A DNA stretch of 64,000 nucleotides from Thermoanaerobaculia bacterium. Lineage in GTDB: Bacteria; Acidobacteriota; Thermoanaerobaculia; Multivoradales; Multivoraceae. The notes below the pieces were generated by a model. That model was not told the origin of the DNA and did no database searches. It worked only from the letters and a program-made list of their open reading frames with translations. The DNA lies in the NCBI GenBank assembly GCA_963666565.1, contig OY762911.1, positions 2,720,001 to 2,784,000 of the forward strand. The letters run 5' to 3'. A program made the position numbers and the translations under genes. Shown piece after piece: positions 23,776 to 51,167 of the stretch (position 1 is its first letter; every line of letters begins with the position of its first letter).

Positions 23776-23960
23776 CCAGCCCAGTCGGGTAAGGAGGGGT
23801 CGGCGCCCAGGTGCCTCTGAACGAGCGACGGCCGACGCCTTCCCGGAAGCCGACCCCGAACCGGAGCGAGTGAAGCGTAGCAAGCGCAACCCTGCCCATC
23901 TCCTCTGGAGCGCGCGCGTCACCTGGGTGCCGACCCCTCCTGACCCAAGACGGGCGGGTG
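23776..23960 (+). ncRNA. Candidate structured repeat element / ncRNA, copy A
   Basis: 27-bp stem 23787-23813 / 23920-23946 enclosing a core similar to copies B and C. Confidence 0.55.
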
Positions 23961-23999
23961 CGTCCGACGCCGCTTCGCCGCGTCTTGCGGTGCCGCCTC

Positions 24000-24863
24000 C
24001 TAACCGCCCGTCGCGTGGCGGTCCGGGTGGCGCATCGCGGTGATGTTGAACCCGGCGTCGACGAAGTGGATGCCGCCGGTGGTTCCGGCGCTCAGATCGG
24101 ACAGCAGGTAGGCGGCGGTCGCGCCGACGTCGTCCACCGTGATGTTGCGGCCGAGCGGGGCCCGCTCCGGCATGACCTTCAGCATGCCGCGCATTCCCGA
24201 GACGCCGGATGCGGCGAGCGTCCTCACCGGGCCGGCGGAGATGCCGTGAACGCGGATGTTCTTCGGACCCAGGTCGACCGCGAGGTAGCGGATCGAGGCC
24301 TCGAGCGCCGCCTTGGCGATGCCCATCACGTTGTAGTTGGGGGTCGCCTTGGTGGCGCCGTAGTAGGTCATCGCGATGATGCTTCCGCCCTCCGTCATCA
24401 GCGGCTCGGCGGCGCGGGCGAGCCCGATCAGCGAGTAGCAACTGATGTCGAGCGCGGTGGCGAAGCCGGCGCGCGACGTGTCGACCGTGCGGCCGAGCAG
24501 GTCCTCCCGGTTGGCGAAGGCCACGGAGTGGACGAGGAAGTCGAGGCGGCCCCAGCGCTCGGCGAGGGTGTCGAACACGGCGTCGATCCGAGCGTCGTCC
24601 GTGACGTCGAGCGGCTCGACGATGGCGGAGCCGATGCTCGCGGCCAGCGGCCGCACGCGACGTTCGAGGGCGTCGCCCTGATACGTGAACGCGAGTTCGG
24701 CGCCTTCCTCGTGGGCGCGCCGGGCGATGCCCCAGGCCAGGGAGCGCTTGTTCGCGACGCCGACGATCAGACCGCGGCGCCCGGCCAGCAGTCCCCGGGA
24801 GGCGGCGCCGGCCGGGGACGGTTCCGACGCGGACTTCCGGGGCGATGAATCGGGCGCGGTCAC
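24000..24863 (-). CDS. fabI: Enoyl-ACP reductase FabI
   Basis: [48 protein letters not shown]. Confidence 0.95.
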
Positions 24864-24962
24864 GAGCGCCGGGATTGTACATGCGGGATCGCTGACGGCC
24901 CGCGCACCGGCACACTTGCCTGCCGGTCGGAGGGCGGTCGGGCCTTAGACTGACCCCGGCTC

Positions 24963-25844
24963 ATGGTCTCGTTGCTCGGCATCGCCCTGGTGGTCGGCGC
25001 GACGCTCTGTTTCGCGCTGCTCAACCTGTTGCGCAAGCTGCTCGCAGGGCGGCTGAACGCGGCTCTTCTGGTCGCGGTTCTGGCCCTGGGGGCCGTGCCG
25101 CTGTACGGCGTGTGGGCGCTGGTCCAGCCGCCCGGGGAAGTGAGCGCGGCGTATCTTTGGCCCGGTCTGGCGTCCGTCGCCTGCAACCTGGTCGCCAACT
25201 ACGGCTTTCTGCGTTCGGTGCGGGTCGCCGGACTCGGCGCCGTAATCCCCCTGCTGTCGTTGACGCCGGTGTTCACCGCGCTGCTGGCGATCCCGCTGCT
25301 CGGCGAGCTTCCCGAACCGCGCGAGTGGTTGGGGATCGCGGTGGTCGTGTGCGCGGCCCTCTCCCTGCAGATCGACCGGGGCGGCGGCGACCAGGCCCGG
25401 CCCTGGCAACTGGGAGCGGGCGCCTGGTGGATGATCCTGGTCGCCCTGCTGTGGGCCACGGCGCTGCCACTCGACAAGCTGGCCACGGAGGCGTCCAACG
25501 TGCCGTTCCACGGCCTGGTCCTTCACCTCGGCGTCGGCCTCTCCGGCGCGATCGTCGCGTCCCGGAGCCTTCGGGGCGCGCTCTGGCGGCGTCGCGCGGC
25601 CGGCGCCGGCCGCGGAACCTGGGTCCTGCTGCTTTCGGCGGTCGCGGTGGGCGCGGCGGCCCAGGCGTTCCAGTTGCTCTCGTTGCAACACGTATGGGTG
25701 GGTTTCGTGGAGACCGTGAAGCAGGGTCTCGGAGCGTCGCTGGCCCTGGTCCTGGGCCGCCTGTTCTTCGCCGAGCCGCTGACGCTGCGAAAGGCGGTGA
25801 CGGTGGCCCTGATCGGGGTCGGCGTCGCGGTGATGCTCTGGTAG
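24963..25844 (+). CDS. EamA/DMT family transporter
   Basis: About 10 hydrophobic helices; PLLSLTPVF...LLGE two-repeat pattern. Confidence 0.85.
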   Translation: MVSLLGIALVVGATLCFALLNLLRKLLAGRLNAALLVAVLALGAVPLYGVWALVQPPGEVSAAYLWPGLASVACNLVANYGFLRSVRVAGLGAVIPLLSLTPVFTALLAIPLLGELPEPREWLGIAVVVCAALSLQIDRGGGDQARPWQLGAGAWWMILVALLWATALPLDKLATEASNVPFHGLVLHLGVGLSGAIVASRSLRGALWRRRAAGAGRGTWVLLLSAVAVGAAAQAFQLLSLQHVWVGFVETVKQGLGASLALVLGRLFFAEPLTLRKAVTVALIGVGVAVMLW

Positions 25845-25855
25845 GTTGACCTGCA

Positions 25856-27448
25856 ATGGCGAGCCGTTTCCCGGCCGGTTCCGGGCGCCTCCTGGCGATC
25901 GTCCTGAGTCTCGTAGCGGTGGGGTCCGGCGCGGTTGGCGCCCAGGTGTTGCGCCTGGACCGGATCGAGCTGCCGGACGGGTTCTCGATCGGCGTCTTCG
26001 CCGACGACGTTCGGGGCGCCCGGTCGCTCGCCCAGAGCCCGGTGGGAACCGTGTTCGTCGGCAGCCGGCCGGAGGGCGTCGTCTACGCGCTGGTCGATTC
26101 GGACGACGACGGCGAGGCGGACGGGACATACCGTCTGGCGTCCGGGCTGAACTCGCCGAACGGCGTCGCCTTCCGCAACGGCGACCTCTACGTGGCCGAG
26201 ATCAGCCGGATACTCCGGTACGACGGCATCGAGAGCCGGCTGGACTCGCCTCCTCGGCCGGTCGTGGTCACCGATCGTCTCCCAAGGGACGAGCATCACG
26301 GCTGGAAGTTCATCCGCTTCGGGCCGGACGGCCGGCTCTACGTGCCGGTCGGCGCTCCCTGCAACGTCTGCGACGAGCCCGACCCCTACAACTCGATCCT
26401 GCGCCTCGCCGCGAACGGCAGCTACGAGATCGTGGCGCGGGGAGTGCGGAACACAGTCGGCTTCGACTGGCATCCGGCGACCCGCCGGCTGTGGTTCACG
26501 GACAACGGCCGCGACTGGCTGGGCGACGACAGTCCGCCGGACGAGTTGAACGTGCTGACGTCCAACGGGCAGCACTTCGGTTACCCGTACTGCCACGGCC
26601 GCGACATCGCCGACCCGGAGTACGGCAACCGGCGTTCCTGTTCGGAGTTCCGGCCGCCGGCCCAGGCGCTCGGGCCGCACGTCGCGGCGCTCGGGATGCG
26701 GTTCTACACGGGGACCGCGTTCCCGGAGCGCTACCGGGGCCAGATCTTCATCGCCGAGCACGGGTCGTGGAACCGGACAGACCCGATCGGCTACCGGGTC
26801 ATGGTGGTCCGGCTGGACGGTAGCGGCCGGGCGGCCGGCTACGAGGAGTTCGCGACCGGCTGGCTCCAGGGGCGAAGCGCGTGGGGCCGGCCGGTGGACG
26901 TGATGGTGCGCGAGGACGGTTCGCTGCTCGTGTCGGACGACCGGCAGGGGGCGATCTACCGCATCGTGCACGAGTCGGCGGCACAACCCGACCCCGACCC
27001 GGATCCCGATCCGCCGGAGCCCGACCCCGATCCTCCGCCCGAACCGGATCCCGATCCGCCGACGGAAGGCCCGTGCGAGCCGGGACCCGACACCCTTTGC
27101 CTGTTGGACGGCCGCTTCGAACTGAAGGTCCGCTGGTGGACGGCGGGCGGCGAGCCGAACCCGGGCTACGTGGCGGAGTACGGCACGGCGGATTCCGGCA
27201 TGTTCTGGTTCCTGGACGCGTCCAACTGGGAGATCCTGGTCAAGGTCCTGGACGGCTGCGCCCTGAACGGCCACGTCTGGGTCTACGGCGCCTCGACGAC
27301 GGACCTGGGCTACTCGATCCATGTGAGGGACACGGCGACCGGCGAGGTGAGCGGCCCGTACCGCAACGAGCCCGGCCGACCCGCCCCGGCGATCACCGAC
27401 AACCGCGCGTTCAGCCAGGCCTGCACGGCGTCCGCGTCGGTCCCGTAA
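25856..27448 (+). CDS. Glucose/sorbosone dehydrogenase family beta-propeller with PD linker and C-terminal Cys-containing module
   Basis: HHGWKFIRFGPDG, GAPCNVC, GVRNTVGFDW, TDNGRD, AEHGSWNR; (PD)n linker; LCLLDGRF...FWF...LVKVLDGC tail. Confidence 0.85.
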   Translation: MASRFPAGSGRLLAIVLSLVAVGSGAVGAQVLRLDRIELPDGFSIGVFADDVRGARSLAQSPVGTVFVGSRPEGVVYALVDSDDDGEADGTYRLASGLNSPNGVAFRNGDLYVAEISRILRYDGIESRLDSPPRPVVVTDRLPRDEHHGWKFIRFGPDGRLYVPVGAPCNVCDEPDPYNSILRLAANGSYEIVARGVRNTVGFDWHPATRRLWFTDNGRDWLGDDSPPDELNVLTSNGQHFGYPYCHGRDIADPEYGNRRSCSEFRPPAQALGPHVAALGMRFYTGTAFPERYRGQIFIAEHGSWNRTDPIGYRVMVVRLDGSGRAAGYEEFATGWLQGRSAWGRPVDVMVREDGSLLVSDDRQGAIYRIVHESAAQPDPDPDPDPPEPDPDPPPEPDPDPPTEGPCEPGPDTLCLLDGRFELKVRWWTAGGEPNPGYVAEYGTADSGMFWFLDASNWEILVKVLDGCALNGHVWVYGASTTDLGYSIHVRDTATGEVSGPYRNEPGRPAPAITDNRAFSQACTASASVP

Positions 27449-27481
27449 GCTCCAGCCACCCAACCCAGAGGAGAATCCGCC

Positions 27482-28651
27482 ATGCCGCGGTCCGCTTTCG
27501 CTCAACGTCTTCGCTTCGCCGCGCCCTGCGCGGCCGGTCTTCTCATCGCGCTCTCGGGGGGCGGCGTCGCTCTCGCCGCCGACGACGAGGTCCGCCTGGA
27601 CCTGATCGAGCTTCCCGCCGGTTTCTCGATCGACGTCTTCGCCGCGGAGATCGACAACGCACGCTCGCTGGCCCAGAGCCCGTCCGGGACCGTCTTCGTC
27701 GGCACCGGACGCAGGGGCGGCGGCGTCGTTCATGCCGTCGTCGATTCGGACGGGGACGGAAGGGCCGACGACCGCTACCGCATCGGCGGCGACCTGAACT
27801 GGCCGAACGGCGTCGCCTTCCACGAAGGCGACCTGTACGTTGCGGAGATCAGCCGCGTACTTCGGTTCGCGGAGATCGAGAGCCGGCTCGACTCACCGCC
27901 CGCGCCGGTCGTGGTCACTGCCGACCTGCCGGAGGAGACTCATCACGGCTGGAAGTTCATCCGTTTCGGTCCCGACGGGCGGCTCTATGTGCCGGTGGGC
28001 GCCCCGTGCAACATCTGCGACGAAGGGGATCCCTTCGCGACGATCCTCCGGCTGGACGAGGCGGGCGGCTACGAGGTCGTCGCCCGCGGCGTGCGCAACA
28101 CGGTCGGCTTCGACTGGCGTCCGAGCACGAGCGAACTGTGGTTCACGGACAACGGCCGGGACATGATGGGCGACGACGTTCCGCCCGACGAACTGAACGT
28201 GCTGACGGAGGACGGCCAGCACTTCGGCTACCCCTACTGCCACGGTCAGGACATTCCCGACCCGGAGTTCGGCGACCGGCGTTCCTGCGGCGAACTCGTG
28301 CCGCCGGCCATCGACCTCGGCCCGCACGTGGCGGCCGTGGGCATGCGCTTCTACCGGGGCGATGCCTTCCCTGAGCGCTACCGCGGGCAGATCTTCATCG
28401 CCGAACACGGTTCCTGGAACCGCAGCAACAAGATCGGCTACCGGGTCATGGTGGTTCACGTCGACCGGGACGGCCAGGCGACGGACTACGAGGAGTTCGC
28501 CACCGGTTGGCTCCAGGGCGAAGACTCGTGGGGCCGCCCGGTCGACGTGATGGAACGCGCCGACGGGTCGCTTCTCGTGTCGGACGACCAGCGCGGCGCG
28601 ATCTACCGCATCGTCCATGACGGGTCCGCGGCCGCGGCCGCCGGAGAGTAG
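27482..28651 (+). CDS. Glucose/sorbosone dehydrogenase family protein (tandem paralog)
   Basis: Same motifs as the upstream gene, with a signal peptide and no C-terminal module. Confidence 0.88.
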   Translation: MPRSAFAQRLRFAAPCAAGLLIALSGGGVALAADDEVRLDLIELPAGFSIDVFAAEIDNARSLAQSPSGTVFVGTGRRGGGVVHAVVDSDGDGRADDRYRIGGDLNWPNGVAFHEGDLYVAEISRVLRFAEIESRLDSPPAPVVVTADLPEETHHGWKFIRFGPDGRLYVPVGAPCNICDEGDPFATILRLDEAGGYEVVARGVRNTVGFDWRPSTSELWFTDNGRDMMGDDVPPDELNVLTEDGQHFGYPYCHGQDIPDPEFGDRRSCGELVPPAIDLGPHVAAVGMRFYRGDAFPERYRGQIFIAEHGSWNRSNKIGYRVMVVHVDRDGQATDYEEFATGWLQGEDSWGRPVDVMERADGSLLVSDDQRGAIYRIVHDGSAAAAAGE

Positions 28652-28655
28652 GCGC

Positions 28656-29915: not shown

Positions 29916-29930
29916 CCCGCTGCCGCCGGG

Positions 29931-29972
29931 CTGGGTGCGCGGGTCTTCCGACCCGCTGCCGCCGAAGGCGGC
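29931..29972 (+). repeat. REP-like double-hairpin repeat, copy 3
   Basis: ctgggtgcgcgggtcttccgacccgctgccgccgaaggcggc, between convergent genes. Confidence 0.85.
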
Positions 29973-30016
29973 CGGGAGAACGCCAGCCGTCGGCTCGGCG
30001 CCGTTTCGCGACGCTC

Positions 30017-31354: not shown

Positions 31355-32286
31355 GCCGTGACGGCCCCGAAGGCGACGGCCTCTTCCCGGGTATCGATGT
31401 CCCGTGCCAGCGACATCGCCTCGACGACCGGCATGCGCACCTTGCGCTCCGGGTGCCGGCGCCGGTGCCGGCGCTTGATGAACATGCGGCGCAGCGCCAG
31501 TTCGAGCTCGGACTGCTGGATGACCTTCTCCTTGAGGCGCCGGGCCGCCCGCGTGCCGGACAGCAGCGTGTCCCAGGTGAAGGTGGGCAGCCGGAGGTTC
31601 AGCATGTGAATGAAGTCCTGGACGAGCATGATCCATAGCAGGCGCCGGGCCATGTAGCCGCTGCGGTAGAGGATCGGCCGGTTGCGCGTGCGGTAGCCGA
31701 GGTCCATCAGCCGGTAGATGAACTTCCAGCGGAGCGCCGCGGAGTCGAACATCGCCAGGTGGCCGGGCAGCACGGGGACCGGCGCCCCGCCGCCGTCGGG
31801 CTTGACGTGGTACTGCGGCTTCCACTCCGAGGCGCCGAGATTCTCCGGATCGCGTGGCGCCCGGACCATGGGGAAGAAGAAGTCGACCGGCCCGTTGCCC
31901 CAGTAGTCCTCGACGACCGTCCGGAGTTCGTCCGGTTCGGGCACGATGTCGCAGGTCGTGACCGCCAGCGGCCCGTCGCCGTGCCGGCGGCGGGCCGCCT
32001 CCACGCCGACCTGGATGTTGCGGCCGAAGCCGCCGTCCGTGTCGACCGGGATGCCGTCCCGCAGGGAGCGGTAGGCATGGCCGGGCCCGGCGACGTAGAT
32101 CGGGTCGAAGGCGTCGCTCTGGCGGATCCGCTCGATGACCACCTCGATCAGCGGCCTGCCGCCGATCTTCACGTCCACTCCCTTGATGCCGGCGAGCGGG
32201 TGCTTGGAGCGGCCTCCCGGCGGCATGTAGGCGGGCCGCCGGTCGCTGCCTCCGAGGATGACGAGGGGTACGTTCTTTCGGGTCAT
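31351..32286 (-). CDS. Putative MobA-like NTP transferase (GT-A fold)
   Basis: VILGGS...K...KIGGRPLIEVVIERI, TTCDI and C-terminal DIDT. Confidence 0.6.
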   Translation of the reverse strand: MTRKNVPLVILGGSDRRPAYMPPGGRSKHPLAGIKGVDVKIGGRPLIEVVIERIRQSDAFDPIYVAGPGHAYRSLRDGIPVDTDGGFGRNIQVGVEAARRRHGDGPLAVTTCDIVPEPDELRTVVEDYWGNGPVDFFFPMVRAPRDPENLGASEWKPQYHVKPDGGGAPVPVLPGHLAMFDSAALRWKFIYRLMDLGYRTRNRPILYRSGYMARRLLWIMLVQDFIHMLNLRLPTFTWDTLLSGTRAARRLKEKVIQQSELELALRRMFIKRRHRRRHPERKVRMPVVEAMSLARDIDTREEAVAFGAVTA

Positions 32287-33592: not shown

Positions 33593-33646
33593 AGGGAGAC
33601 CGCCTCGCGTTGGGGGGCGCGGCGACTGGCGGTAGAGTCCGCCGCC

Positions 33647-38748: not shown

Positions 38749-40539
38749 ATGTCCGTTCGCAACTTCTGCATCATCGCCCACATCGACCACGGCAAGTCGA
38801 CGCTGGCCGACCGTCTGATCCAGCACTGCGGGGCGGTCGAGGACCGCCAGTTCCGCGACCAGATCCTCGACTCGATGGACATCGAGCGGGAGCGGGGCAT
38901 CACGATCAAGAGCAACACGGTGACCCTCCGGCACCAGGACGCCGAGGGCCGGCCCTGCCGCCTGAACCTGATCGACACGCCGGGCCACGTCGACTTCTCG
39001 CACGAGGTGCGGCGCTCGCTCATGTCCTGCGAGGGGGCGCTGCTCCTGATCGACGCGTCGCAGGGCGTCGAGGCGCAGACGGTCGCGAACCTCTACCTGG
39101 CGCTGGAGTACGACCTGACGATCATCCCGGTGATCAACAAGATCGACCTGCCGTCGGCCGACGTGGACCGGGTGCGCGAGGAGATCGACAGCGACCTGGG
39201 GCTCGATCCGTTCGAGGCGGTGCTGTGCTCGGCGAAGACGGGCGAGGGCGTCGAGGACGTGCTCGACGCGATCGTGACCCGGTTGCCGGCGCCGGAGGAG
39301 GACTCGTCGGCCCCGCTCCGGGCGCTCGTGTTCGATGCCCAGTACGACCCCTACCGCGGCGTCGTCCTGCTGGTGCGGGTGCGCGAAGGATCGCTCCGGC
39401 CGAAGCAGAAGATCCGCCTGATGCACACGGGCAGCGAGCACGACGTGGAGGAGCTCGGCACTTTGCTGCTCAAGCGCCGGCGGAGCGAGTCGCTCGAGGC
39501 CGGCTCGGTGGGCTACGTGATCGCCGGCATCCGCAACATCTCCGAGATCGACATCGGCGACACGATCACGAGCGCCGCGGGCGGCGCGGCCGAGCCGATC
39601 CCCGGCTACCGCGAGGCCAAGCCGGTCGTCTTCTCGTCGATGTACCCGGTGTCGAGCCACGACTACGAGGACCTGACGCGGGCGCTCGAAAAGCTCGCGT
39701 TGAACGACGCTTCGCTGACCTTCGAGAAGGACTCGTCGTCGGCGCTCGGCTTCGGCTTCCGCTGCGGGTTCCTCGGGCTCCTGCACCTGGACGTGGTGCA
39801 GGAGCGCCTGGAACGTGAGTACGGGCTGTCGCTCGTGCTCTCCGCGCCGTCGGTGCGCTACCGGGTGGAGATGTCGGACGGCGCCGAGAGGCGGATCGAC
39901 AACCCGGCCGCCTACCCGGACCCGTCCGAGATCGAGAGCGTCGCCGAGCCGTACATCAAGGCGGCGATCATGTTGCCGGAGCGCTACCTCGGGGCGGTCA
40001 TGGAACTCTGCCTGGAGCGCCGCGGCGGCAAGACGAACATCCACTACCTGGCGGTGGGCCGGGTCGAACTGACCTGCGAGCTGCCGCTCGCCGAGGTGCT
40101 GTTCGACTTCTACGACCGGCTGAAGACGGTGACCCAGGGCTACGGCTCGTTCGACTACGAGCTGATCGGCCTGCGGCCGACGGATCTCGTCAAGGTCGAC
40201 ATCCTGGTCAACGGCGAGCGGGTCGACGCGCTGTCCCAGCTCGTCCACCGCGAAAAGGCGCGCCCGCGGGCGCTCCGCTACTGCGAGCGGCTCAAGGACA
40301 CGATCCCGCGCCAGCAGTTCAAGATCGCCATCCAGGGCGCCATCGGCGGCCAGATCATCGCCCGCACGACGATCGGCGCCTTCCGCAAGGACGTCACCGC
40401 CAAGTGCTACGGCGGCGACATCACCCGCAAGCGCAAGCTGCTGGAGAAGCAACGCGAGGGCAAGAAGCGGATGAAGCGCGTCGGCTCGGTGGACATCCCG
40501 CAGGAGGCGTTCGTGTCCGTGTTGCGCAGCGACGGGTAG
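38749..40539 (+). CDS. lepA: Elongation factor 4 (LepA)
   Basis: IAHIDHGKSTLADR, DTPGHVDF, GFRCGFLGLLH, KCYGGDITRKRKLLEKQ. Confidence 0.97.
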   Translation: MSVRNFCIIAHIDHGKSTLADRLIQHCGAVEDRQFRDQILDSMDIERERGITIKSNTVTLRHQDAEGRPCRLNLIDTPGHVDFSHEVRRSLMSCEGALLLIDASQGVEAQTVANLYLALEYDLTIIPVINKIDLPSADVDRVREEIDSDLGLDPFEAVLCSAKTGEGVEDVLDAIVTRLPAPEEDSSAPLRALVFDAQYDPYRGVVLLVRVREGSLRPKQKIRLMHTGSEHDVEELGTLLLKRRRSESLEAGSVGYVIAGIRNISEIDIGDTITSAAGGAAEPIPGYREAKPVVFSSMYPVSSHDYEDLTRALEKLALNDASLTFEKDSSSALGFGFRCGFLGLLHLDVVQERLEREYGLSLVLSAPSVRYRVEMSDGAERRIDNPAAYPDPSEIESVAEPYIKAAIMLPERYLGAVMELCLERRGGKTNIHYLAVGRVELTCELPLAEVLFDFYDRLKTVTQGYGSFDYELIGLRPTDLVKVDILVNGERVDALSQLVHREKARPRALRYCERLKDTIPRQQFKIAIQGAIGGQIIARTTIGAFRKDVTAKCYGGDITRKRKLLEKQREGKKRMKRVGSVDIPQEAFVSVLRSDG

Positions 40540-40726
40540 CACCCCCGCAGCCCCGACGGGCTGGACGGCGTCGGTTGGCGGAGACGGGCGCCGACCCAAG
40601 CGGATTGCCGGGTGCGTGGCCCGGTTAGGCGGACTCGCCGGTGTAGAAAGGCGACTGTGCGAAGTGCGGCCTCCGAATCGAGCGGCGCCGACTTCGCGCA
40701 CCGCGCCGCGACGCGATCCGAAGCGC

Positions 40727-42652: not shown

Positions 42653-42767
42653 CGGCTTCTCCTTGAGAGCGTGTCGGGTCAGTCTACTATTGGCCTCTCA
42701 TGGAAGTGGTCGGCAAGAGCGGTATCGGCTTGACGGCGGGCCGGCGCGATGTTCCGGCCGCCCTGTC

Positions 42768-42803
42768 GGTGCGCCGGTCTTCCGACCCGCCGCCGAAGGC
42801 GGC
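42768..42803 (+). repeat. REP-like double-hairpin repeat, copy 4 (degenerate)
   Basis: ggtgcgccggtcttccgacccgccgccgaaggcggc, followed by ccgcgaagcgg. Confidence 0.7.
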
Positions 42804-42845
42804 GAGGACTTCGCACCGCGAAGCGGCGCCCGAGGAGGACTCGTT

Positions 42846-45431
42846 GTGAGGAAACTGACGGACGGACTCGTTCTCGCTGTCGCGGGAGTGCTGGCGGCGG
42901 CGCCGCCGGCCATGGGCTACGAGTTGGAGCCCGCTCTCAGGGCCCGCGTCGACGGCCTGATCGCGGAGGTCGCCGAGTCCCCGACCACCGGCGCCAGCGT
43001 CGCCGAACGGATCCCGGTTCTGTGGGACTGGGCGAACGCCGTTTCGCTGCAGGGCGGGTTCGTGCCGAAGAATCTCCCGCTGGTCGCGTACTTCGTGCCG
43101 TTTCCCCGGCCCGGAGCGGAACCGGCGAGGAACCAGATCGAGGCGGTGGACGACTACGTGCGGCAGCTCGCCTGGCTGGACGAGGACCCGGGCGCGCTCG
43201 GCACGGTGACGCGAACCGGTTCCGATGTCTTCGAGGCCAGGACCTGGGCGACGATCGAGGTCGTCTACACCGTCGGTTCGCTCGGCATGAAGGAGGGCGG
43301 CGGCATCGTCGTTTCCTCGCAGGGCATGGGAGGCTACGGCCGCGCGCAGACGACGGACGCCGCCGCCGACCGGTACGTCTCGGCGCGAGTCAGCCGGCCG
43401 GGCATCCGTCTCGAGCAGGACACGCACCCGATCTGGGGCCCCTACGGCGGCTTCCGCGGACCGGCCGGCTTTCCCATGTTCCGCGTTCGCGGCGGAGATC
43501 TCGAAGCCGGCGACACGATCGCCCTCACCTACGGCGACACGTCGGGCGGCGGGCGCGGTCTCCGGCTCGGCCAGTTCAGCAACGACCGGATCGCGCTGCC
43601 GATTCACGTCGACCCCGGCGATGGCAGGGTCTACGAGATGCCTCCCGCGACGTTCGAGGTCGTGGGCGGCGCGGCGGAGCGGGTCCACGGCTTCGCGCCG
43701 TCGATCGTCGGCACGGGCGAACCGTTCGTCATCTCGGTGCGGGCCGAGGACCGCGCCTACAACCGGGCGACCCGGGGAATTCCGGCCCTCCATGTGCTGC
43801 TCGACGGCGAGCAGGTGGCCGAACTGCCGGCCGGGCAGGCGATCCACCTGGTCGAGCTTGTCGCCGGCGCGGAGGGCGTCCATCGCTACACCTTCCGCAG
43901 CCCGGACGGCGAGGTCACGGGCGCCGCCAATCCAGTCTGGGTGCGGGCGGACCCCGAGCAGCGCCTCTACTGGGGCGAGACGCACGGGCACTCCGGCTTC
44001 GCCGAGGGTCAGGGCACTCCGGAGGGCTACTTCGCGTTCGCCCGCGACGACGCCCGTCTCGACTTCGTCACGATGAGCGAGCACGACATCTGGTTGACGG
44101 ACGGACTCTGGGAAGAGCTGAACGAGGCGGTCCGGAAGTTCCACCGGGAGGGCGAACTGCTGGTCTTCGCCGGCTACGAGTGGACGTCGCCCCGCCAGCG
44201 CGGCGGTCACCACAACGTGTTCTTCCGAAACGTCGGCATGCAGCGGGTGGGCGTGCAGTCGGCGCCGAACCTGTCGGACCTCTATCGCGGCCTGCGCGCC
44301 GAGTACGACACGGACGACGTACTGATCATCCCGCACGCCCATCAGAACGGGGACTGGCGGCAGAACGACTTCCAGATGGAGAACCTGATCGAGATCATGT
44401 CCGGCCACGGCACCTTCGAGTGGTTCGGCAGCCGCTACCTGGAGCAGGGCTTCCGGGTCGGCTTCGTGTCCGCGTCGGACGACCACCTGGGGCACCCGGG
44501 TTACTCGCCGGGTCACCAGGCCGGCGCTTCCGGCCGGCGGTCGAACATCTTCCAGTTCGGCGGTCTGGCGGCCGCCTGGGCGCCGGCGCGCACCACGGAT
44601 GCGGTGTTCGGCGCGCTCAAATCCCGGCACGCCTACGCGACGACCGGCGCACAGCGGATCGTGCTCGACGCTCGCCTGAACGGAGAGCCGATGGGCAGCG
44701 AACTGGACCTGACCGACCGCCGGGCGCTCGAGGGACGGGCGATCGGCACGGGGCCGATCCGGCGGGTCGACCTGATCCGCAGCGGCGAAGTCGCGGCGAC
44801 GTTCGACACGCGCGGCGCCGGCGGGGCGGCGCTGCCGGAGGGCCAGTTCGAGGCCCTGGTCAGCTTCTTCTCGGAAACCTGGGTCGACATCCGGGACAAC
44901 CCGCGCGGGCAGCGGCCGTGGCGGGGCAGCGTGACGGTGGAAGGGGCGAAGCTGGTTGGCGGCCGTCTGACCGGCCCGCCGCTGCCGTCGGATCGCTTCG
45001 CGGTCGACGGCAACGCGGCCAGCTTCGACTTCACGACCCGGGGCTCGCGGCGTTCCTTTGCGCTGGTGCTGGAGGGCGATCCGGCGGCGGTGCGGCTCGA
45101 CCTCGAAATCGAGGCCGCCGTCGAATACGGCACGGCGCCGACCCAGGTGCGCACCCCGCAGCGGTTCGCCGCCGCCGAGTTCACGCTGGCGCTGCCGGCG
45201 GCGCCGGGCACGTCGGCGGGCGCCCGCGGCGGCAACGAGCACGTCTTCCACGAAGGCGACTACCGCGACAGCGTCCGCGCCGACTTCATCGAGGGACTCC
45301 GCGACGACGTGACCTTCCGCTTCACCGACTTCGGCGAAGAGGAGGACTGGTACTACCTCCGCGTCGAGCAGATCGACGGCCACCTCGCCTGGTCGAGCCC
45401 CTGGTGGGTCGGCGGCGAGAAGCCGCGCTAG
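42846..45431 (+). CDS. DUF3604-like / PHP-domain exported protein
   Basis: RBS GAGGAGGA; YWGETHGHS, SEHD, GYEW, GHHNV, IPH, SASDDH, YYLRVEQ...AWSSP. Confidence 0.8.
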   Translation: MRKLTDGLVLAVAGVLAAAPPAMGYELEPALRARVDGLIAEVAESPTTGASVAERIPVLWDWANAVSLQGGFVPKNLPLVAYFVPFPRPGAEPARNQIEAVDDYVRQLAWLDEDPGALGTVTRTGSDVFEARTWATIEVVYTVGSLGMKEGGGIVVSSQGMGGYGRAQTTDAAADRYVSARVSRPGIRLEQDTHPIWGPYGGFRGPAGFPMFRVRGGDLEAGDTIALTYGDTSGGGRGLRLGQFSNDRIALPIHVDPGDGRVYEMPPATFEVVGGAAERVHGFAPSIVGTGEPFVISVRAEDRAYNRATRGIPALHVLLDGEQVAELPAGQAIHLVELVAGAEGVHRYTFRSPDGEVTGAANPVWVRADPEQRLYWGETHGHSGFAEGQGTPEGYFAFARDDARLDFVTMSEHDIWLTDGLWEELNEAVRKFHREGELLVFAGYEWTSPRQRGGHHNVFFRNVGMQRVGVQSAPNLSDLYRGLRAEYDTDDVLIIPHAHQNGDWRQNDFQMENLIEIMSGHGTFEWFGSRYLEQGFRVGFVSASDDHLGHPGYSPGHQAGASGRRSNIFQFGGLAAAWAPARTTDAVFGALKSRHAYATTGAQRIVLDARLNGEPMGSELDLTDRRALEGRAIGTGPIRRVDLIRSGEVAATFDTRGAGGAALPEGQFEALVSFFSETWVDIRDNPRGQRPWRGSVTVEGAKLVGGRLTGPPLPSDRFAVDGNAASFDFTTRGSRRSFALVLEGDPAAVRLDLEIEAAVEYGTAPTQVRTPQRFAAAEFTLALPAAPGTSAGARGGNEHVFHEGDYRDSVRADFIEGLRDDVTFRFTDFGEEEDWYYLRVEQIDGHLAWSSPWWVGGEKPR

Positions 45432-45444
45432 CGCTGGAGGTGGC

Positions 45445-45661
45445 ACCCGCCGGCCCGGGGCCTGAGGGGGAGGGCCCAGCGGACGTTCGCGCTTTCGGAG
45501 TTTGGGGGACGACTGCGCTCACTCCGCTTCACTCGCTCCGGTCGGGCGTCGGTTGGGGGAATGACGTCGGGCGTCGCTCGTTCAGAGGCCGCTGGGACCC
45601 TCCGCCTCAGACCCCGGACCGGCTGCACGTCGTCAGCCCCGGACCGGCTGGACGTCGTCGG
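45445..45661 (-). ncRNA. Candidate structured repeat element / ncRNA, copy B
   Basis: ~34-bp stem 45449-45482 / 45589-45623 around a core nearly matching copy A on the minus strand. Confidence 0.55.
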
Positions 45662-45730
45662 GCGGTCGGACCGAACGCCGGCTGGCACGAACGAGAGGAC
45701 GGAGGTGCTGGTGGGCGATTTGGGACGTTC

Positions 45731-45777
45731 CACACTGGGTGCGCAGGCGTCCTCGCCGGCTGCCGCCGGAGGCGGCC
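45731..45777 (+). repeat. REP-like repeat, copy 5 (left inverted repeat)
   Basis: cacactgggtgcgcaggcgtcctcgccggctgccgccggaggcggcc. Confidence 0.85.
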
Positions 45778-45884
45778 AGTAGACGGGCCGCGAAGCGGCC
45801 ACGATCTCCGCCAGATGGCTCAACGAAACGTGATTCAACCGTAGAGGCTACGTCTTGTCCAAGGAGCCGAGGCGTGGGCAAGGG

Positions 45885-47129
45885 ATGGTTCCGGCGGAGG
45901 CGGCCGGGCTCTACGTCCACATCCCCTTTTGCTCGGCGATCTGTCCCTACTGCGACTTTGCGGTGGCGCGGGGTGGCGAGGCGGATGGGGAGCGGTTTGT
46001 TGATGCCTTGGTTGGAGAGATCGATTCCTTCGGCTGCAGGGGGCGAGAGCGGAATCGGACTGGCGAGGCTGAGAGGTTCGGTACCGGCGGGTTCGACACT
46101 GTGTACTTCGGCGGAGGTACTCCCTCGGCGCTGGGCCTGGAGCAGCTTGGGGCGATTCGGCGGCGATTGGTCGGGACGTTCCTGATCGATCCCGAGGCCG
46201 AGTGGACGATCGAGGTGAACCCGGAGGATGCGTCGCCCGAGGCGCTGTCGGGCTGGCGGGAACTCGGTTTCGACCGGGTCAGTCTGGGCCTGCAGGCGTT
46301 GGACGATCGGGCGTTGCGCTTTCTCGGGCGGCGGCACGATGCGGCGGCGGCGCGTGCGAGCGTCGAAGGGGCACGTGCCGCGGGTTTCCGGTCGGTGTCG
46401 GTCGACCTGATCTACTCGTTGCCCGGATTCGACGGCGGCTGGTGGCTTCGGACGCTGGACGAGGCGGCGGCGCTCGGGCCGGACCACGTCTCCTGCTACG
46501 AACTGACGATCCACGACGGGACGCCGTTCGGCCGGCGGCGGGACGCGGGCAGGCTGCGGGACACCGGCGAAGACGAGCGGGCCGCCAACTTCGTCGCCAC
46601 GCATCGGCGGCTCGCGAAGCTCGGCTACGAGGGCTACGAGGTCTCGAACTTCGCCCGCCGCGTGGCGGACCGGAGCCGCCACAACCGGAAGTACTGGCGG
46701 CACCGGCCCTATCTGGGGCTGGGGCCTTCGTCGCACTCCTTCGCCGGGCGCAGTCGGTGGTGGAACGTGGCTCCGTGGAAGGACTGGAGCGCCGCGGTGG
46801 CGAGCGGTGAATCTCCGGTCGCCGGTCGCGAGGAACTGACCGACGACCAACTGCTGCTGGAAGCGGTGATGATGGGACTCCGCCAGCGATCCGGCATCGA
46901 CTGCGCCGCGCTGGAGCGGCGTTTCGGCATCGATCCGTCCGCCGGCAACGCCGGGCGAATCGAAGCCTGGGAGAAGGCGGGCTGGCTCCGGGTCGTTGGC
47001 CGGCGACTGACGCCGACCCTCGAAGGCATGGCCCGGGCCGATCGCCTTGCGGGGGAGTGGATCCTCCCGGCCGGCGGTAGCCGGCGCCGCCGGAGGCGCG
47101 CGGCCTCGTCGTCGCCCGTGAGCGGGTAG
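45885..47129 (+). CDS. hemW: Radical SAM heme chaperone HemW
   Basis: LYVHIPFCSAICPYCDF, YFGGGTPS, YEVSNFA and the diagnostic HNRKYW. Confidence 0.9.
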   Translation: MVPAEAAGLYVHIPFCSAICPYCDFAVARGGEADGERFVDALVGEIDSFGCRGRERNRTGEAERFGTGGFDTVYFGGGTPSALGLEQLGAIRRRLVGTFLIDPEAEWTIEVNPEDASPEALSGWRELGFDRVSLGLQALDDRALRFLGRRHDAAAARASVEGARAAGFRSVSVDLIYSLPGFDGGWWLRTLDEAAALGPDHVSCYELTIHDGTPFGRRRDAGRLRDTGEDERAANFVATHRRLAKLGYEGYEVSNFARRVADRSRHNRKYWRHRPYLGLGPSSHSFAGRSRWWNVAPWKDWSAAVASGESPVAGREELTDDQLLLEAVMMGLRQRSGIDCAALERRFGIDPSAGNAGRIEAWEKAGWLRVVGRRLTPTLEGMARADRLAGEWILPAGGSRRRRRRAASSSPVSG

Positions 47130-47142
47130 TCTGACCTCGACG

Positions 47143-47676
47143 ATGAGACGCCCGCCCGCAGGAGCGGAGAAGGTGCGCGCCCTGATGCGGCGCCTGGGCG
47201 GTGCGGCCCGCAGTCCCGGGCGGATCTATCTGGTGGGGGGCGCCTCCGCCGTCCTCGTCGGCTGGCGGGAGACGACGATCGATGTCGACCTCAAGCTCGA
47301 TCCGGAGCCGGAGGGCGTCTTCGCCGCGATCGCCGGGGCGAAGGAGGCGCTTCGGGTGAACGTGGAACTCGCGGCGCCCGACGACTTCCTGCCCGCGCTG
47401 CCCGGGTGGCGCGACCGCAGTCCGTTCGTCGCGCGTCACGGGGTTGTCGATTTCTTTCACTACGACTTCCACGCCCAGGCTCTCGCGAAGATCGAACGGG
47501 CCCACGCCCAGGACCTGGCCGACGTGGAGGCGATGCTGGAGCGCGGCCTGGTCACGGCGCCGCGGCTCCTGGATCTGTTTCGACGGATCGAGCCTGAACT
47601 GGAACGCTATCCGGCAGTCGAGCCCAGGTGTCTTCGCCTGAGGGTGCTTCGCTACGCCGGCGAGGACGGGGCATGA
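47143..47676 (+). CDS. DUF6036-like nucleotidyltransferase
   Basis: YLVGGASAVL.GWRETTIDVDL, ALAKIERAHAQDLADV. Confidence 0.75.
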   Translation: MRRPPAGAEKVRALMRRLGGAARSPGRIYLVGGASAVLVGWRETTIDVDLKLDPEPEGVFAAIAGAKEALRVNVELAAPDDFLPALPGWRDRSPFVARHGVVDFFHYDFHAQALAKIERAHAQDLADVEAMLERGLVTAPRLLDLFRRIEPELERYPAVEPRCLRLRVLRYAGEDGA

Positions 47677-48080
47677 CCGGGCCGGAAACGGCTGCGCTCG
47701 ACCGCGTGCCGGCGACGCTCCCGGGCGCGGATCTCGTGGCGGCGGGGATCGAGGCGCTGCGGCGGGGAGAGACGACGGAGGAGGCTCTGCTGGTTCTGAT
47801 CGGCGCCTGGCGGCTCCGCGCCGCCGGTCTGGATGTTCCGGCGGCGCCGGACCTCGAGACGTCGCCCGAGATCGCCCTCTACGGGATGATCGCCGCCAGG
47901 CGCTCGGCCGACGCGCACTCCCGTTACAACGCGCTTGTCCGTCGCCTGGTCAGCTTCGAGCGCGCGTTGGAGAGCCGGCCTTCGGCCGGCGCGTCTTTCC
48001 GGCCGCCTTCGGCGGCAGCCGGCGAGGACGCCGGCGCACCCAGTGTGCGGCCCCGTTCCCCGCGCGACAGCGCAGCCTGA
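47673..48080 (+). CDS. Small hypothetical protein translationally coupled to the nucleotidyltransferase
   Basis: ATGA overlap; LPGADLV..G...AHSRYNALVRRLVSFERAL; the tail runs through a REP copy. Confidence 0.7.
   Translation: MTGPETAALDRVPATLPGADLVAAGIEALRRGETTEEALLVLIGAWRLRAAGLDVPAAPDLETSPEIALYGMIAARRSADAHSRYNALVRRLVSFERALESRPSAGASFRPPSAAAGEDAGAPSVRPRSPRDSAA
48001..48047 (-). repeat. REP-like repeat, copy 6 (right inverted repeat)
   Basis: The reverse complement matches 45731-45777 at 45 of 47 positions. Confidence 0.85.
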
Positions 48081-48095
48081 CGGCTGCGAACACTC

Positions 48096-49757
48096 CTAGC
48101 GGAAGACGGACGCTTCGAGCTCGACGTCGGCGCTCTGCCACGCCTTCGCCAGGCGCTCTTCCACTGCATCCGCTTCCTGCTTCCGGTCCTGCGCGCGCAG
48201 TGCCTCCGCCAGGCCGTACAGGGACCAGCCGTTGTGCGGGTTGTGCTCCAGGTCGCGGCGGTAGGCGGCTTCGGCCTCGGCGGCGCGGCCGGCTTCAAGC
48301 AGGACGGCGCCGAGGGACTGGCGCACGGGGTAGTGGAAGGACGGCGGCTCCGCGTAACGGAGGCTGTCCTGGAGCGCCACGGCCGAGCGCATCTCGGCGA
48401 TCGCCCGCGGCAGCCGGCCCCTGGCCGCCTGGATCTCGCCAGCGAGCAGGTGTTCGGTCAGGCGCACCAGATCGGCGCCTCGGGCGAACGAGATGCGGAG
48501 TTCCGAGAGTTCCGGGCGCCGCCGGAGCTTGCCGAGCGCCTTGAGGTGGCGTCTGGCGCCGCGCGGGTCGCCCGCGGCCGCCGCGGCCAGGCCCTGGGCG
48601 TAGCGCCACATCGCGGTCTGGAAGGTCTGGCCGGCCGGCGGCGCCGGGGTATCGCGGATCTCCTGCCAGCGGCCGAACCGGACGCGGGCGAAAAGCGGCG
48701 TCGCCAGGTAGTTCTGGAGGAAGGCAAGCGTCGAGGCCATCGCGAGCGGTACTTCCGCCGCCAGCCTGTCGGCGGTCTCGATCGCCAGTTCCGAGCGGCC
48801 GCCGAAGGTGGCGGCGGCCCACAGGAAGTGGATGTTGTGGGGGTAGTAGCCGACCGCGTATAGCCCCTGGGCGTTGCATTGCGCGAGGTAGTCGAGGTCG
48901 GCGGCGATCGCGCGCTGGTTCGAGGTCACCGCGTCGTCGTAGCGGCCGACCCGGATGTAGATGTGCGCCGGCATGTGGACCAGGTGGCCGGCGGAGGGCA
49001 TCAGCTTGCCCAGGGCGTCGGCGCTGGGCTCGGCGAGATGGGGTTCGCGCGCCTCCATCAGGTGGATGTAGTAGTGGTGCGCGCCCGGGTGGTCGGGGTG
49101 CGCCGCAATCACCCGCTCCAGCGCTGCCTTCGCCTCGACGGTTCCCGGTTGCGGTTGGCCGCCGCGCCAGTAGTCCCAGGGCATCGTGTTCATGATCGCC
49201 GCGGCGTGCAGCGTCGCCGGTTCCGGGTCGTCCGGGAAGCGCTTCGCGACGGCGGCGATGGCGTCGACCCACGCCGCGTCGAAGGCGGCCCGGTCGGCCT
49301 CTTCTTCGGCGGAGTAGCGGCTCGCGAGCGCCTCGATCAGGGCCTGCTCGCGCTCGTCGCCGTTGGCGCGCCGTTCGCGCGCCAGCTCCAGGCTGGCCAG
49401 CGCCTGCAGCTCGCGCTCCCGCGGCATCGAGTCGTTCAGGTTGCGGCCCAGGGCCAGCGCCTTGCCCCAGTGTGGCATCGGCGCTTCCGGGTCGAGCCGC
49501 GCCGCTTCCTCGAAGGCCCGAATGGCCTCGGCGTGGTTGAACGCGTAGACGAGCCGCAGCCCCTGGTCGAAGAAGCGCTGCGCCGCTTCGGACGAGGTGG
49601 TGATCGGGTAGTGCAGGTCGCCCAGGCCCTCCAGCGTCGGCGCCAGAGGTTGGCCGGCGTCGTTGGCGCTGGCGTCAGCCGGGGAGGCGCTCAGCAGAGC
49701 GGCCGCCCAGGCGGCGGCGAGGATCGCCGGGATGCGTCCCGGTCCGCTGTCTCTCAT
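48096..49757 (-). CDS. Exported TPR-containing protein
   Basis: AQRFFDQGL..YAFNHAEA, HPGAHHYYIHLME, HLVHMPAHIY, NGWSLYGL; signal peptide after ATG 49757. Confidence 0.82.
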   Translation of the reverse strand: MRDSGPGRIPAILAAAWAAALLSASPADASANDAGQPLAPTLEGLGDLHYPITTSSEAAQRFFDQGLRLVYAFNHAEAIRAFEEAARLDPEAPMPHWGKALALGRNLNDSMPRERELQALASLELARERRANGDEREQALIEALASRYSAEEEADRAAFDAAWVDAIAAVAKRFPDDPEPATLHAAAIMNTMPWDYWRGGQPQPGTVEAKAALERVIAAHPDHPGAHHYYIHLMEAREPHLAEPSADALGKLMPSAGHLVHMPAHIYIRVGRYDDAVTSNQRAIAADLDYLAQCNAQGLYAVGYYPHNIHFLWAAATFGGRSELAIETADRLAAEVPLAMASTLAFLQNYLATPLFARVRFGRWQEIRDTPAPPAGQTFQTAMWRYAQGLAAAAAGDPRGARRHLKALGKLRRRPELSELRISFARGADLVRLTEHLLAGEIQAARGRLPRAIAEMRSAVALQDSLRYAEPPSFHYPVRQSLGAVLLEAGRAAEAEAAYRRDLEHNPHNGWSLYGLAEALRAQDRKQEADAVEERLAKAWQSADVELEASVFR

Positions 49758-49893
49758 GCGGTCAGGGTAACAGCGTCGGCGGAGCGGGATTCGCGGCACG
49801 CGCTTGCGGTGCGGCGGGGTCGAGGCCGAACACGGCGCCGGCAATGGTCCGCGAGCGCCGGTCGGCGTTAGCATCGCCCTCGATGGGTGGTCC

Positions 49894-50916
49894 GTGGCGC
49901 GCATAGCGGTCCTGACCGGAGGCTCGACGCCGGAGAGAACGGTCGCCCTGGCCGGAGCGGCCAAGGTGTCGGCCGCGTTGCGGACCCGCGGCCACGAGGT
50001 CGCCGTGTTCGACACAATCGAACCGGGACCCCTGGACGCGGAACAGGAGCGTCGGCGCCTGGGCCGAGCCGTCGGCGCCCGCCCGCCGTCGCTGGCCGAG
50101 CTGCGCGAACTGGAAGCGCGGGAAGACCTGCCCGCCCTGGTCGCGGGCGAACTCGCCGGCCACGACGCCGTCTTCCTCGTCCTCCACGGCCGCCAGGGCG
50201 AGGGCGGGGAAGTGCAGGAGCTGCTGGAGGCCGCCGGCATCGCCTTCACCGGCAGCGACTCCCGCGGCAGCCGTCTGGCGATGGACAAGGACGAGAGCAA
50301 GCGCCGCTTCCGCGATGCCGGTATCCCGACTCCCGACTGGCTGACCTGGCCGGCCCGTCAGTCCGACATCGAAGAGCTCGGCCTGCCCCTGATCGTCAAG
50401 CCGTCACGGGTCGGCTCGACGGTCGGCCTGACCCTCATGCGGGATCTCGACGGCCTCGACTCGGCGGTCGGCAAGGCCTTGACGTTCGACGACCACGTGA
50501 TCCTGGAGCCGTTCCTGCCCGGGCGGGAGTACACCGTGGGAGTCCTCGAGGACTGCGCACTGGGCGTCGGCGAGATCATCTCGCCGGGCACGATCTTCGA
50601 CTTCCACAGCAAGTACACCCCGGGGCGTGCCCGGGAAGTGTTTCCAGCCGACATCGACGAGGACCTCCGGAAGCGTCTCCGCGAACTTGCCCTCGCCGCC
50701 CACGAGGCGCTGGCCCTCCGCGACTTCTCCCGCGTCGACTTCCGTCTCGACGCCGAGGGCGCCCCTCACTGCCTGGAGGTCAACACCCTGCCGGGCATGA
50801 CGCCCACCAGCCTCCTCCCGCAATCCGCCGCGGTCTTCGGCATCTCCTTCGAAGACCTCTGCGACCGCATGATCCGTCTGGCTCTGGGCCGCAACGCTCC
50901 TGACCTCGCTCCGTGA
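49894..50916 (+). CDS. ddl: D-alanine--D-alanine ligase
   Basis: VLTGGSTPER, LHGRQGEGG, MDK, GSTVG, FDFHSKY, RVDF, EVNTLPGMT. Confidence 0.93.
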   Translation: MARIAVLTGGSTPERTVALAGAAKVSAALRTRGHEVAVFDTIEPGPLDAEQERRRLGRAVGARPPSLAELRELEAREDLPALVAGELAGHDAVFLVLHGRQGEGGEVQELLEAAGIAFTGSDSRGSRLAMDKDESKRRFRDAGIPTPDWLTWPARQSDIEELGLPLIVKPSRVGSTVGLTLMRDLDGLDSAVGKALTFDDHVILEPFLPGREYTVGVLEDCALGVGEIISPGTIFDFHSKYTPGRAREVFPADIDEDLRKRLRELALAAHEALALRDFSRVDFRLDAEGAPHCLEVNTLPGMTPTSLLPQSAAVFGISFEDLCDRMIRLALGRNAPDLAP

Positions 50917-50974
50917 ACCCTCCGCACTCCCGTGCGACTCAGTAGCCGGACCAATCCTCGGACCATCGAGCCAG

Positions 50975-51167
50975 ACGACGACGTCCCGCCCGAGCCGGGC
51001 CGGGGGGCGGGGTCCCGGGGGGTCGGAGGCAAGTGACTCCCGGCGCCCTTCCGGCAACCGACGCCGAGCAGGAACGCAGCCGACAACAGCGAGCCCACCC
51101 CTTCCGTCCTCTGCCTTGAGGGCGAGCGTCCCCCGGGACCCTCCCCCCGGCCCGGATCGGGCGGGTT
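50975..51167 (+). ncRNA. Candidate structured repeat element / ncRNA, copy C (more diverged)
   Basis: ~36-bp stem 50985-51021 / 51130-51165 around a core alignable to copies A and B. Confidence 0.5.

Follow-up and report, generated by a model that had tools for sequence, protein, structure and literature searches.

We describe a previously unnamed, multi-copy family of hairpin-forming intergenic repeats, three copies of which (A, B and C) lie in a 64,000-nucleotide stretch of a Thermoanaerobaculia genome (assembly GCA_963666565.1, contig OY762911.1, positions 2,720,001 to 2,784,000), referred to here as the window. Rather than representing a new RNA gene, the element is most probably a small mobile DNA element, either parasitic or tamed. 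On balance, and by a modest preference, we read A, B and C as a non-autonomous, mobile-derived repeat of Thermoanaerobaculia-type Acidobacteriota, a new family of a known kind that resembles the hairpin-forming doublets of repetitive extragenic palindromes (REPs) known as REPINs and the MITEs (miniature inverted-repeat transposable elements). For this barely studied clade, represented only by metagenome-assembled genomes (MAGs), the analysis adds a well-defined repeat family, documented by 100 aligned copies, a structure and a covariance model. Repeats of this sort break assemblies and confuse annotation.

All three copies were found by a sequence-only nhmmer profile built from 70 copies in other genomes and holding no rows from the window (Table 1). 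We used this window-free profile because the G+C content of the window is 71% and chance similarity needed ruling out; beyond A, B and C it gave no full-length match in the 64 kb. The covariance model, R1, also recovered A, B and C, together with a short remnant after lepA. It scored copy A at only 35.4 bits on the reverse strand compared with 204.5 bits on the strand that carries the core, so the core gives the element a polarity. In A, B and C alike, one long hairpin surrounds a core without self-complementarity, and each RNA fold was more stable than every one of 200 dinucleotide shuffles. A, B and C are one real, previously unnamed multi-copy family, in agreement with a preliminary description of the window, made from the letters alone, that had grouped three intergenic regions around a shared core. 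What that description said of the sequence also stands: the blocks shared by A and B, the gcg..cgtc ends of the core, GGCGGGT at the 3′ end of each copy and long stems that close the core are all present. It had put the closing stem at 27–36 bp; a long stem is indeed there, but the hairpin is longer, about 45 bp with its outer helix. Copy B belongs to a different stem subfamily from A and carries a 25-nt tandem duplicate of its 5′ end (45635–45660), whereas its orthologues at loci L018, L043, L049 and L022 have a single 5′ end. Copy C has intact stems and decayed core motifs.

The family had been described as unrecognized, and our searches bear this out. Rfam 15 gave no family match at gathering score over the whole window except a SAM riboswitch, no sensible match at E ≤ 10 around A, and nothing at E ≤ 0.01 in five loci with copies. 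ARAGORN called no tRNA or tmRNA at the elements, and blastn in distant mode, with A and a consensus-like copy as queries, found no match in plasmid and phage collections. The literature that we searched on Candidatus Multivorans and on palindromic or miniature inverted repeats in Acidobacteria and Thermoanaerobaculia held no description of the family. The SAM riboswitch (RF00162, 72.2 bits; 52487–52616, minus strand) lies upstream of the gene for a pyridoxal phosphate (PLP) enzyme of Cys/Met metabolism whose stop codon C abuts. ARAGORN also placed a tRNA-Arg (CCG) at 46629–46710 (minus strand), inside a HemN-like coding region; Rfam has no tRNA there, so the call is probably false.

One scan of a species-representative genome collection, with two core blocks as the pattern, gave at least 112 loci (numbered with an L); the window's own genome is outside the loci listed. 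R1 at E ≤ 1e-19 gave at least 100 matches, 3 in the window and 97 among the loci listed. The 97 locus copies come from at least 33 assemblies, all of them MAGs with Acidobacteriota-lineage labels (Thermoanaerobaculia, Candidatus Multivorans, ‘Holophagales’, Acidobacteria, Acidobacteriota and one ‘Vicinamibacteraceae’). The other 18 pattern loci, from Chloroflexia, Actinomycetota, Proteobacteria and others and including four non-Thermoanaerobaculia Acidobacteriota (L011, L044, L053 and L104), gave no R1 match (14 tested at E ≤ 0.001 and 4 only at E ≤ 1e-19). Among the loci listed, the closest relatives of the window are about 88–89% identical to it over flanking genes. Second copies missed by the pattern occur within 2 kb of others (for example, L057, L020 and L047), several copies stand at contig ends (for example, L083, L105 and L112), and the density in the window is 3 copies per 64 kb. 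The family contains stem subfamilies, truncated copies and deletion remnants, and some copies host other repeats or islands. Flanks of 2 kb were taken at 80 loci; the long-flank set comprises 71 copies in 26 orthology clusters.

The anatomy of the element, drawn from a 74-row alignment and the fold of one consensus-like copy, is that of a repeat of about 200–205 nt in which two inverted arms of about 45 nt form an imperfect hairpin of about 45 bp around an asymmetric core of about 105 nt. The 5′ tail ends in CGACGTCC and is followed by the outer helix, a bulge of 4–5 nt and a main stem of 26–27 bp; the core then opens with CCTCTGAACGAGCGAC and runs through some 30 variable bases to GGAGCGAGTGAAGCG. 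It holds an internal 8-bp hairpin with a pyrimidine (C/T)-rich loop of about 23 nt, two bases precede the return strands, and these end in GGGCGGGTG and a short tail. The loop is pyrimidine-rich in every stem subfamily of the alignment, and many copies from other genomes have an extra small hairpin just upstream of the 5′ tail. Of 120 matches, 21 have a spacing of 52 nt within the core, 80 one of 53 nt and 5 one of 54 nt. A short reverse-strand open reading frame (ORF) had been seen by eye in consensus-like copies, and this single-base variation in core length rules out a coding reading of the core. The internal hairpin, the polar placement by stop codons described below and the remnant after lepA are additions to the preliminary description.

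The closing stems covary, as the preliminary description had proposed. In the 100-row alignment, which was fitted to the model and whose copies are related, so that cell counts are not independent events, standard pairs fill 91.0% of 4474 cells, and 97% in the main stem. Changes on both sides were found at 33 of 46 pairs, with all four Watson–Crick types at several positions; none of 500 shuffles reached any of five pairing measures, and slid partners were only 35–57% paired. We also compared copies that occupy the same site in different species, using 10 orthologous groups (1512 pair comparisons) and leaving out the two largest flank clusters, in which single linkage had merged non-orthologous loci. 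At these sites 93 double changes kept pairing and 9 broke it, against an expectation of some 23 doubles, of whatever kind, had the arms changed independently. Complementarity is therefore kept in place and is not merely inherited from master copies. Insertions are compensated as well, an extra base in one arm being matched in the other (for example, in L025, L074, L082 and L038).

With its pairing kept, the element sequence is barely constrained in place and drifts at about the synonymous rate. Orthologous copies differ by 12.4% in paired columns and by 13.0% in unpaired columns, and the true rate is if anything higher because ascertainment makes 20 core bases identical. Divergence of the element at the B locus is about 18–20%, compared with 4% at codon positions 1 and 2 and 20–24% at position 3 of the neighbouring gene. 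According to two sources (PMC8604942 and PMC7202029), template switching between imperfect inverted repeats homogenizes their arms. As this process yields coupled, multi-base and indel ‘compensation’ in the absence of selection, it is a live alternative to selection, and covariation alone is no proof that selection acts on a single strand. The quasipalindromes discussed in those sources share with our element arms that co-vary, compensated insertions included, without clear sequence constraint; however, template switching is a mutational process and not a class of element, and it leaves the spread, the conserved core and the placement unexplained. Where hairpins form on single-stranded DNA, changes in one arm may be copied to the other by template switching or mismatch correction, perhaps reinforced by selection for an element that can fold. 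In-place covariation accompanied by near-synonymous drift shows how covariation, taken alone, can exaggerate the evidence for an RNA gene, and the family could help to separate selection from homogenization by template switching.

The preliminary description had gone further, arguing from covariation and from G.U pairs that selection acts on a single-stranded structure. It had stated that all transition-type imperfections of the stems are G.U pairs on the core strand. Those that can be placed in the main stem, one each in A, B and C, are indeed of this kind, but this is not a property of the family: main stems hold 28 G.U-type and 14 A.C-type cells, or 23 and 14 (p 0.19) without the island-truncated copy of L061, which correspond to 16 and 9 distinct events (p ~0.2). 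We therefore rejected a strand asymmetry of wobble pairs as a family trait. With a non-significant wobble bias, compensated insertions in the arms and near-synonymous drift, single-strand selection is not supported by the argument as it was made.

The copies are extragenic and their placement is polar. Most of them have, within a few to about 70 nt of their 3′ end, the stop codon of a gene that runs on the opposite strand. The window copies all stand between housekeeping genes, with 3′ ends 9–35 nt from such a stop codon: B, antisense to both of its neighbours, separates the DUF3604-related gene from a HemN-like radical SAM gene, and C separates a D-Ala-D-Ala ligase gene from the convergent PLP enzyme gene. 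When coding was called from G+C periodicity at third codon positions (GC3) within 340 nt of the 71 long-flank copies, 58 had coding DNA nearby on the 3′ side (51 toward the element and 7 away), whereas only 21 had it on the 5′ side (13 toward and 8 away), where longer non-coding DNA is found. By orthology cluster, the 3′ side reads toward the element in 20, away in 4 and undetermined in 2 of the 26 (p 0.0015), and coding is close on the 3′ side in 24 clusters compared with 10 on the 5′ side (Fisher p 8e-5). An ORF-based count gave 47 versus 14. Nearby copies on chromosome OZ245033.1 lie on opposite strands, so the polarity follows the neighbouring gene and not the direction of replication, and we rejected replichore-linked orientation. 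We found no sigma-70-like promoters at A, B or C and no T-run terminators there on either strand; the G+C-rich hairpin with T-run that defines an intrinsic terminator does not occur at these copies.

Many copies occupy orthologous sites in several species. The gene ruvB is bracketed by two inverted copies, one in the ruvA–ruvB gap and one downstream, in L026 (1161–3231), L009, L028, L074 and L075. We considered whether such a pair, about 1.3 kb apart, might represent transposon ends and rejected this, as the enclosed gene is ruvB with ruvA upstream and the two are separate intergenic copies. Downstream of ruvB, where L075 and L009 hold copies, L058 has a remnant, and the corresponding site in L064 looks empty but diverged. 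Both remnants, that of L058 and the one after lepA in the window, keep about 30 nt of the 5′ end; the window remnant also keeps a few nucleotides of the 3′ end, with the interior deleted. Some copies contain a different repeat: a 68-nt double-hairpin repeat is nested at one position, between the internal hairpin and the 3′ arm, in L014 and L019 (minus strand) and in L009 (3280–3574), and L009 also has an extra solo 3′ arm.

That the element is non-autonomous and was mobilized in trans, as first suggested in the preliminary description, stays the best reading of these data. In this reading an unlinked transposase would have handled the element as a folded single strand and so spread it. Foremost among the candidates for this mobilizer, named tentatively and with considerable doubt, is a Y1/HUH enzyme of the RAYT/TIRYT type; if a dedicated single-copy transposase were found, REPIN-like biology would be extended to Acidobacteriota. 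REPINs are described as inverted doublets that form hairpins, in which compensatory changes are common and which persist by vertical descent (PMC3116915 and 10.1101/2022.05.22.493013), and REPs as lying mostly downstream of genes (PMC3733652). Our element shares with the REPIN/RAYT system, as described there, its extragenic location, multiple copies, two inverted units or arms that form a long hairpin, compensatory changes, vertical persistence and the lack of an internal transposase. With MITEs it has in common terminal inverted repeats of about 45 nt, small size and the lack of a coding gene. ERIC and Correia elements are 100–200 nt long, have long imperfect inverted ends and a polar interior and lie in transcribed intergenic DNA; Correia elements have defined target duplications. 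The size, inverted ends, polar interior and intergenic sites are thus shared, but there is no sequence relation, the host phylum is another one and the Correia target duplications have no counterpart that could be read here.

Long inverted repeats carrying GGGGWSAS flank the RAYT-like TIRYT genes (PMC3733652 and PMC6006769), and a sharply defined TIRYT group of Y1 transposases is present in Acidobacteria (PMC3733652). The TIRtron/TIRYT terminal inverted repeats of the same papers (Di Nocera et al. 2013, PMC3733652; Quentin et al. 2018, PMC6006769) resemble our element in being long and in forming moderately abundant families and dimers. Of 100 copies, 46 have a 5′ arm that fits the GGGGWSAS motif. 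CGTC, the tag of certain REP superfamilies (PMC3733652), stands at the core end of 77 copies, and 56 copies have it in the 5′ tail and 44 in the 3′ tail. These resemblances are partial and could be due to chance in DNA of 71% G+C; the 112 representatives of flanking proteins described below include no TIRYT gene beside copies, and the described REPs with a CGTC tag have stems of 8–9 bp and loops of 4–5 nt, whereas our element is on a different scale.

In the search for a mobilizer, 219 ORFs from the flanks of 63 loci were reduced to 112 cluster representatives and compared with Pfam at E ≤ 1e-8. The mobile-element proteins among them are the representative of an integrase cluster (L061) and one IS110-family transposase (L078). 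The latter was weighed as a mobilizer or as the source of a bridge RNA and rejected, as its insertion site, some 120 nt away from the element, is a copy of the unrelated small repeat described in the last paragraph; this IS110 element (about 420–1900 of L078, minus strand; 381 aa, with DEDD_Tnp_IS110 and Transposase_20 domains) has the same short sequence at both junctions. The window ORFs scanned include no transposase, integrase or reverse transcriptase, in line with the earlier statement that no mobilizing gene lies in the window. A parent insertion sequence with the same ends was not found, and all five copies in the sampled loci that lack the 3′ part and enter foreign DNA hold an integrase island and no transposase. 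For a retron, no reverse transcriptase gene stands beside the copies, judged by the window ORFs and the 112 representatives; for a guide RNA of the IS200/IS605 type, the same proteins include no TnpB or IscB and Rfam gives no HEARO match. Integron attC sites were also rejected, as the copies are dispersed in both orientations among housekeeping genes and do not form same-oriented cassette arrays beside IntI.

The family departs from textbook REPINs and MITEs in its long, conserved and asymmetric core, its polarity by stop codons, its long persistence with pairing kept and its use by integrases as an attachment site, and several further observations weigh against a mobile, REPIN-like origin. 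Neither the 112 flank representatives nor the window ORFs scanned include a Y1/HUH enzyme, TnpB or IscB, or a reverse transcriptase, although no genome-wide search for RAYT genes was made. The arms, at about 45 nt and not self-palindromic, are no short REP palindromes and lack the GTAG tag, and the loop of about 105 nt is asymmetric, conserved and provided with its own hairpin, whereas REPIN spacers are short and less conserved. Part of the core conservation is forced, as the scan pattern fixes 20 core bases that must then be identical in the fetched copies. The 71 long-flank copies fall into only 26 orthology clusters, so most of the sampled copies are old; flank pairs gave two remnants and one diverged site, and neither a target-site duplication nor a clean empty site was readable in them. 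Simple transposition would not predict the polarity by stop codons, which fits a selected cis function. Finally, the internal hairpin contains tandem G.A/A.G in about 45 of 100 copies, a subfamily trait and hence not a count of independent events, where the others have two Watson–Crick pairs; the alignment has 89 such cells compared with 3 pyrimidine–pyrimidine (C.T) cells. Only on the core strand can a helix accommodate tandem G.A; this signal is clearly strand-specific and hints that the fold is specific to that strand.

The placement bears most directly on the possibility that the element is a cis-acting RNA structure in 3′ untranslated regions (UTRs), which we consider rather unlikely as a full account. 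On this explanation the reverse complement would be co-transcribed with the adjacent gene, serving as a terminator free of a U-tract, an exonuclease barrier or an RNase III site, and the repeats would be duplications of a useful module. The convergent stop codon near the 3′ end in 51 versus 7 copies and 20 versus 4 clusters is what it would lead one to expect, as are the copies kept at orthologous sites, such as those on both sides of ruvB, and the pairing kept in place. However, on the co-transcribed strand the G.U pairs would become A.C (23 cells) and tandem G.A would become C.U, giving a weaker fold; 7 of 58 copies and 4 of 24 clusters have the opposite orientation, and one of the ruvB-flanking copies is upstream of a gene. 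A, B and C lack T-run terminators, the remnants are copies lost without replacement, and a barrier hairpin has no need of a conserved, asymmetric core of 105 nt. On the mobile-derived reading that we prefer, read-through from the adjacent gene would put the reverse complement of the element in the 3′ UTR of that gene, where the hairpin might act in a REP-like manner, as an exonuclease barrier or a terminator-like structure, and with such a role copies behind stop codons would tend to survive.

Tandem G.A, the invariably pyrimidine-rich loop and the pairing kept in place hint at another reading, which we think unlikely, namely that these are lineage-wide, vertically kept structured elements selected for the fold of the core strand, with a fixed polarity at gene ends, which would act as a convergent antisense RNA or a 3′-end module and have been adopted by integrase islands. 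A more specific proposal, that the copies are small RNAs (sRNAs) transcribed independently from the core strand, convergent with the neighbouring gene and with the C/U-rich, anti-Shine–Dalgarno-like loop as the functional site, seems decidedly unlikely. It draws on the core-strand hints (23 G.U versus 14 A.C cells and the tandem G.A of about 45 in 100 copies), on a loop that is pyrimidine-rich across all stem subfamilies and on the longer 5′ non-coding DNA, which could house a promoter. P4-type integrases usually target RNA genes, and such integrases use this core as an attachment site. Yet the excess of G.U is non-significant, A, B and C showed no promoter-like and no terminator-like sites, non-orthologous copies share no conservation in their 5′ flanks and the unpaired core drifts in place at an approximately neutral rate; three copies per 64 kb would be a very large copy number for an sRNA, and no relative was found in Rfam. 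It is possible that the 3′-UTR and sRNA roles are later uses of a mobile-derived element.

Five copies (in L036, L037, L061, L083 and L084) are cut at the same core nucleotide, which belongs to the 5′ strand of the internal hairpin. Beyond the cut, the five islands have homologous DNA (68–88% identical), whereas their chromosomal flanks are unrelated. About 215 nt after the cut each island has a gene for an integrase of 378–387 aa with Arm-DNA-bind_3, Phage_int_M and Phage_integrase domains, that is, a tyrosine integrase of the P4 type; in L036 (2063 onward) the reading frame is interrupted. Comparison of L083 with its orthologues L054 and L009 indicates that the uninterrupted element came first. 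With a single exact core position used at five unrelated loci, the core serves related integrase islands as a multi-copy attachment site. This use and the strict stop-codon polarity are two leads beyond what is ordinary for such repeats. The same five interruptions with unrelated flanks could be taken to mean that the element is itself part of the life cycle of the islands, either as a miniature derivative of them or as a dedicated landing pad, present in many copies, that the integrase moves, but this is very improbable, given that the uninterrupted element is older (L083 compared with L054 and L009), that the missing part of the element is not supplied by the island DNA and no 3′ half lies within 2 kb, that 95 of 100 copies have no island, and that the pattern is that of an ordinary attB and not of a mobilized substrate.

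Table 1 Features of the window (positions within the 64,000-nt stretch)
Feature	Position	Strand	Basis or remarks
Copy A, full length	23771-23965	+	Sequence; fold z -4.85; R1 204.5 bits; nhmmer E 1.1e-55
A, outer helix and 5′ tail	23771-23782	+	
A, main stem, 5′ arm	23787-23813	+	
A, core	23814-23919	+	Internal hairpin: 23880-23887 paired with 23910-23917
A, main stem, 3′ arm	23920-23946	+	
A, 3′ strand of outer helix and tail	23952-23965	+	
Copy B	45441-45660 (element proper 45441-45634)	-	Fold z -3.75; R1 159.6 bits; nhmmer E 1.8e-41
Copy C, diverged	50977-51171	+	Fold z -4.57; R1 100.1 bits; nhmmer E 8e-12
46-nt copy remnant immediately behind the lepA stop codon	40540-40585	-	L060 orthologue is a full copy; weak R1 match 40526-40589, E 0.73
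M20 peptidase gene, 5′ side of A	22422-23603	+	Pfam PF01546, GC3 frame plot; stop ~167 nt from element
Short-chain dehydrogenase / enoyl-ACP reductase gene, convergent with A	24000-24863	-	Pfam PF13561; stop ~35 nt from A 3′ end
DUF3604-related gene, convergent with B	42663-45431	+	Pfam PF12228; stop ~10 nt from B 3′ end
Cys/Met-metabolism PLP enzyme gene, convergent with C	51180-52361	-	Pfam PF01053; stop ~9 nt from C 3′ end
Small-repeat copy	10244-10293		
Small-repeat copy	19681-19729		
Small-repeat copy	29931-29983		
Small-repeat copy	42757-42804		
Small-repeat copy	45731-45787		
Small-repeat copy	48001-48051		

The window contains a second, unrelated repeat of about 50 nt, which consists of two short G+C-rich hairpins and ends in GCGCACCCAG; its 6 window copies lie mostly just behind genes (Table 1). 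Of 71 copies of the large element, 19 (9 of 26 clusters) have the signature of this small repeat, in the same orientation, within 300 nt of their 5′ side. One copy lies in a segment of about 1 kb (47062–48095) that is absent from the orthologous L043 and L022 and that also holds a DUF6036 nucleotidyltransferase-like ORF (47143–47676) and another, unassigned ORF. Elsewhere in the window, 25850–27445 and 27449–28648 are tandem paralogues of the glucose/sorbosone dehydrogenase or DUF7133 type, 77% identical over 300 nt at a spacing of 1647 nt, and a 21-nt tandem repeat of about 6 units (2810–2935; four overlapping 63-nt windows at 21-nt spacing) lies within an ORF that has a MoxR-type AAA domain on the other strand.

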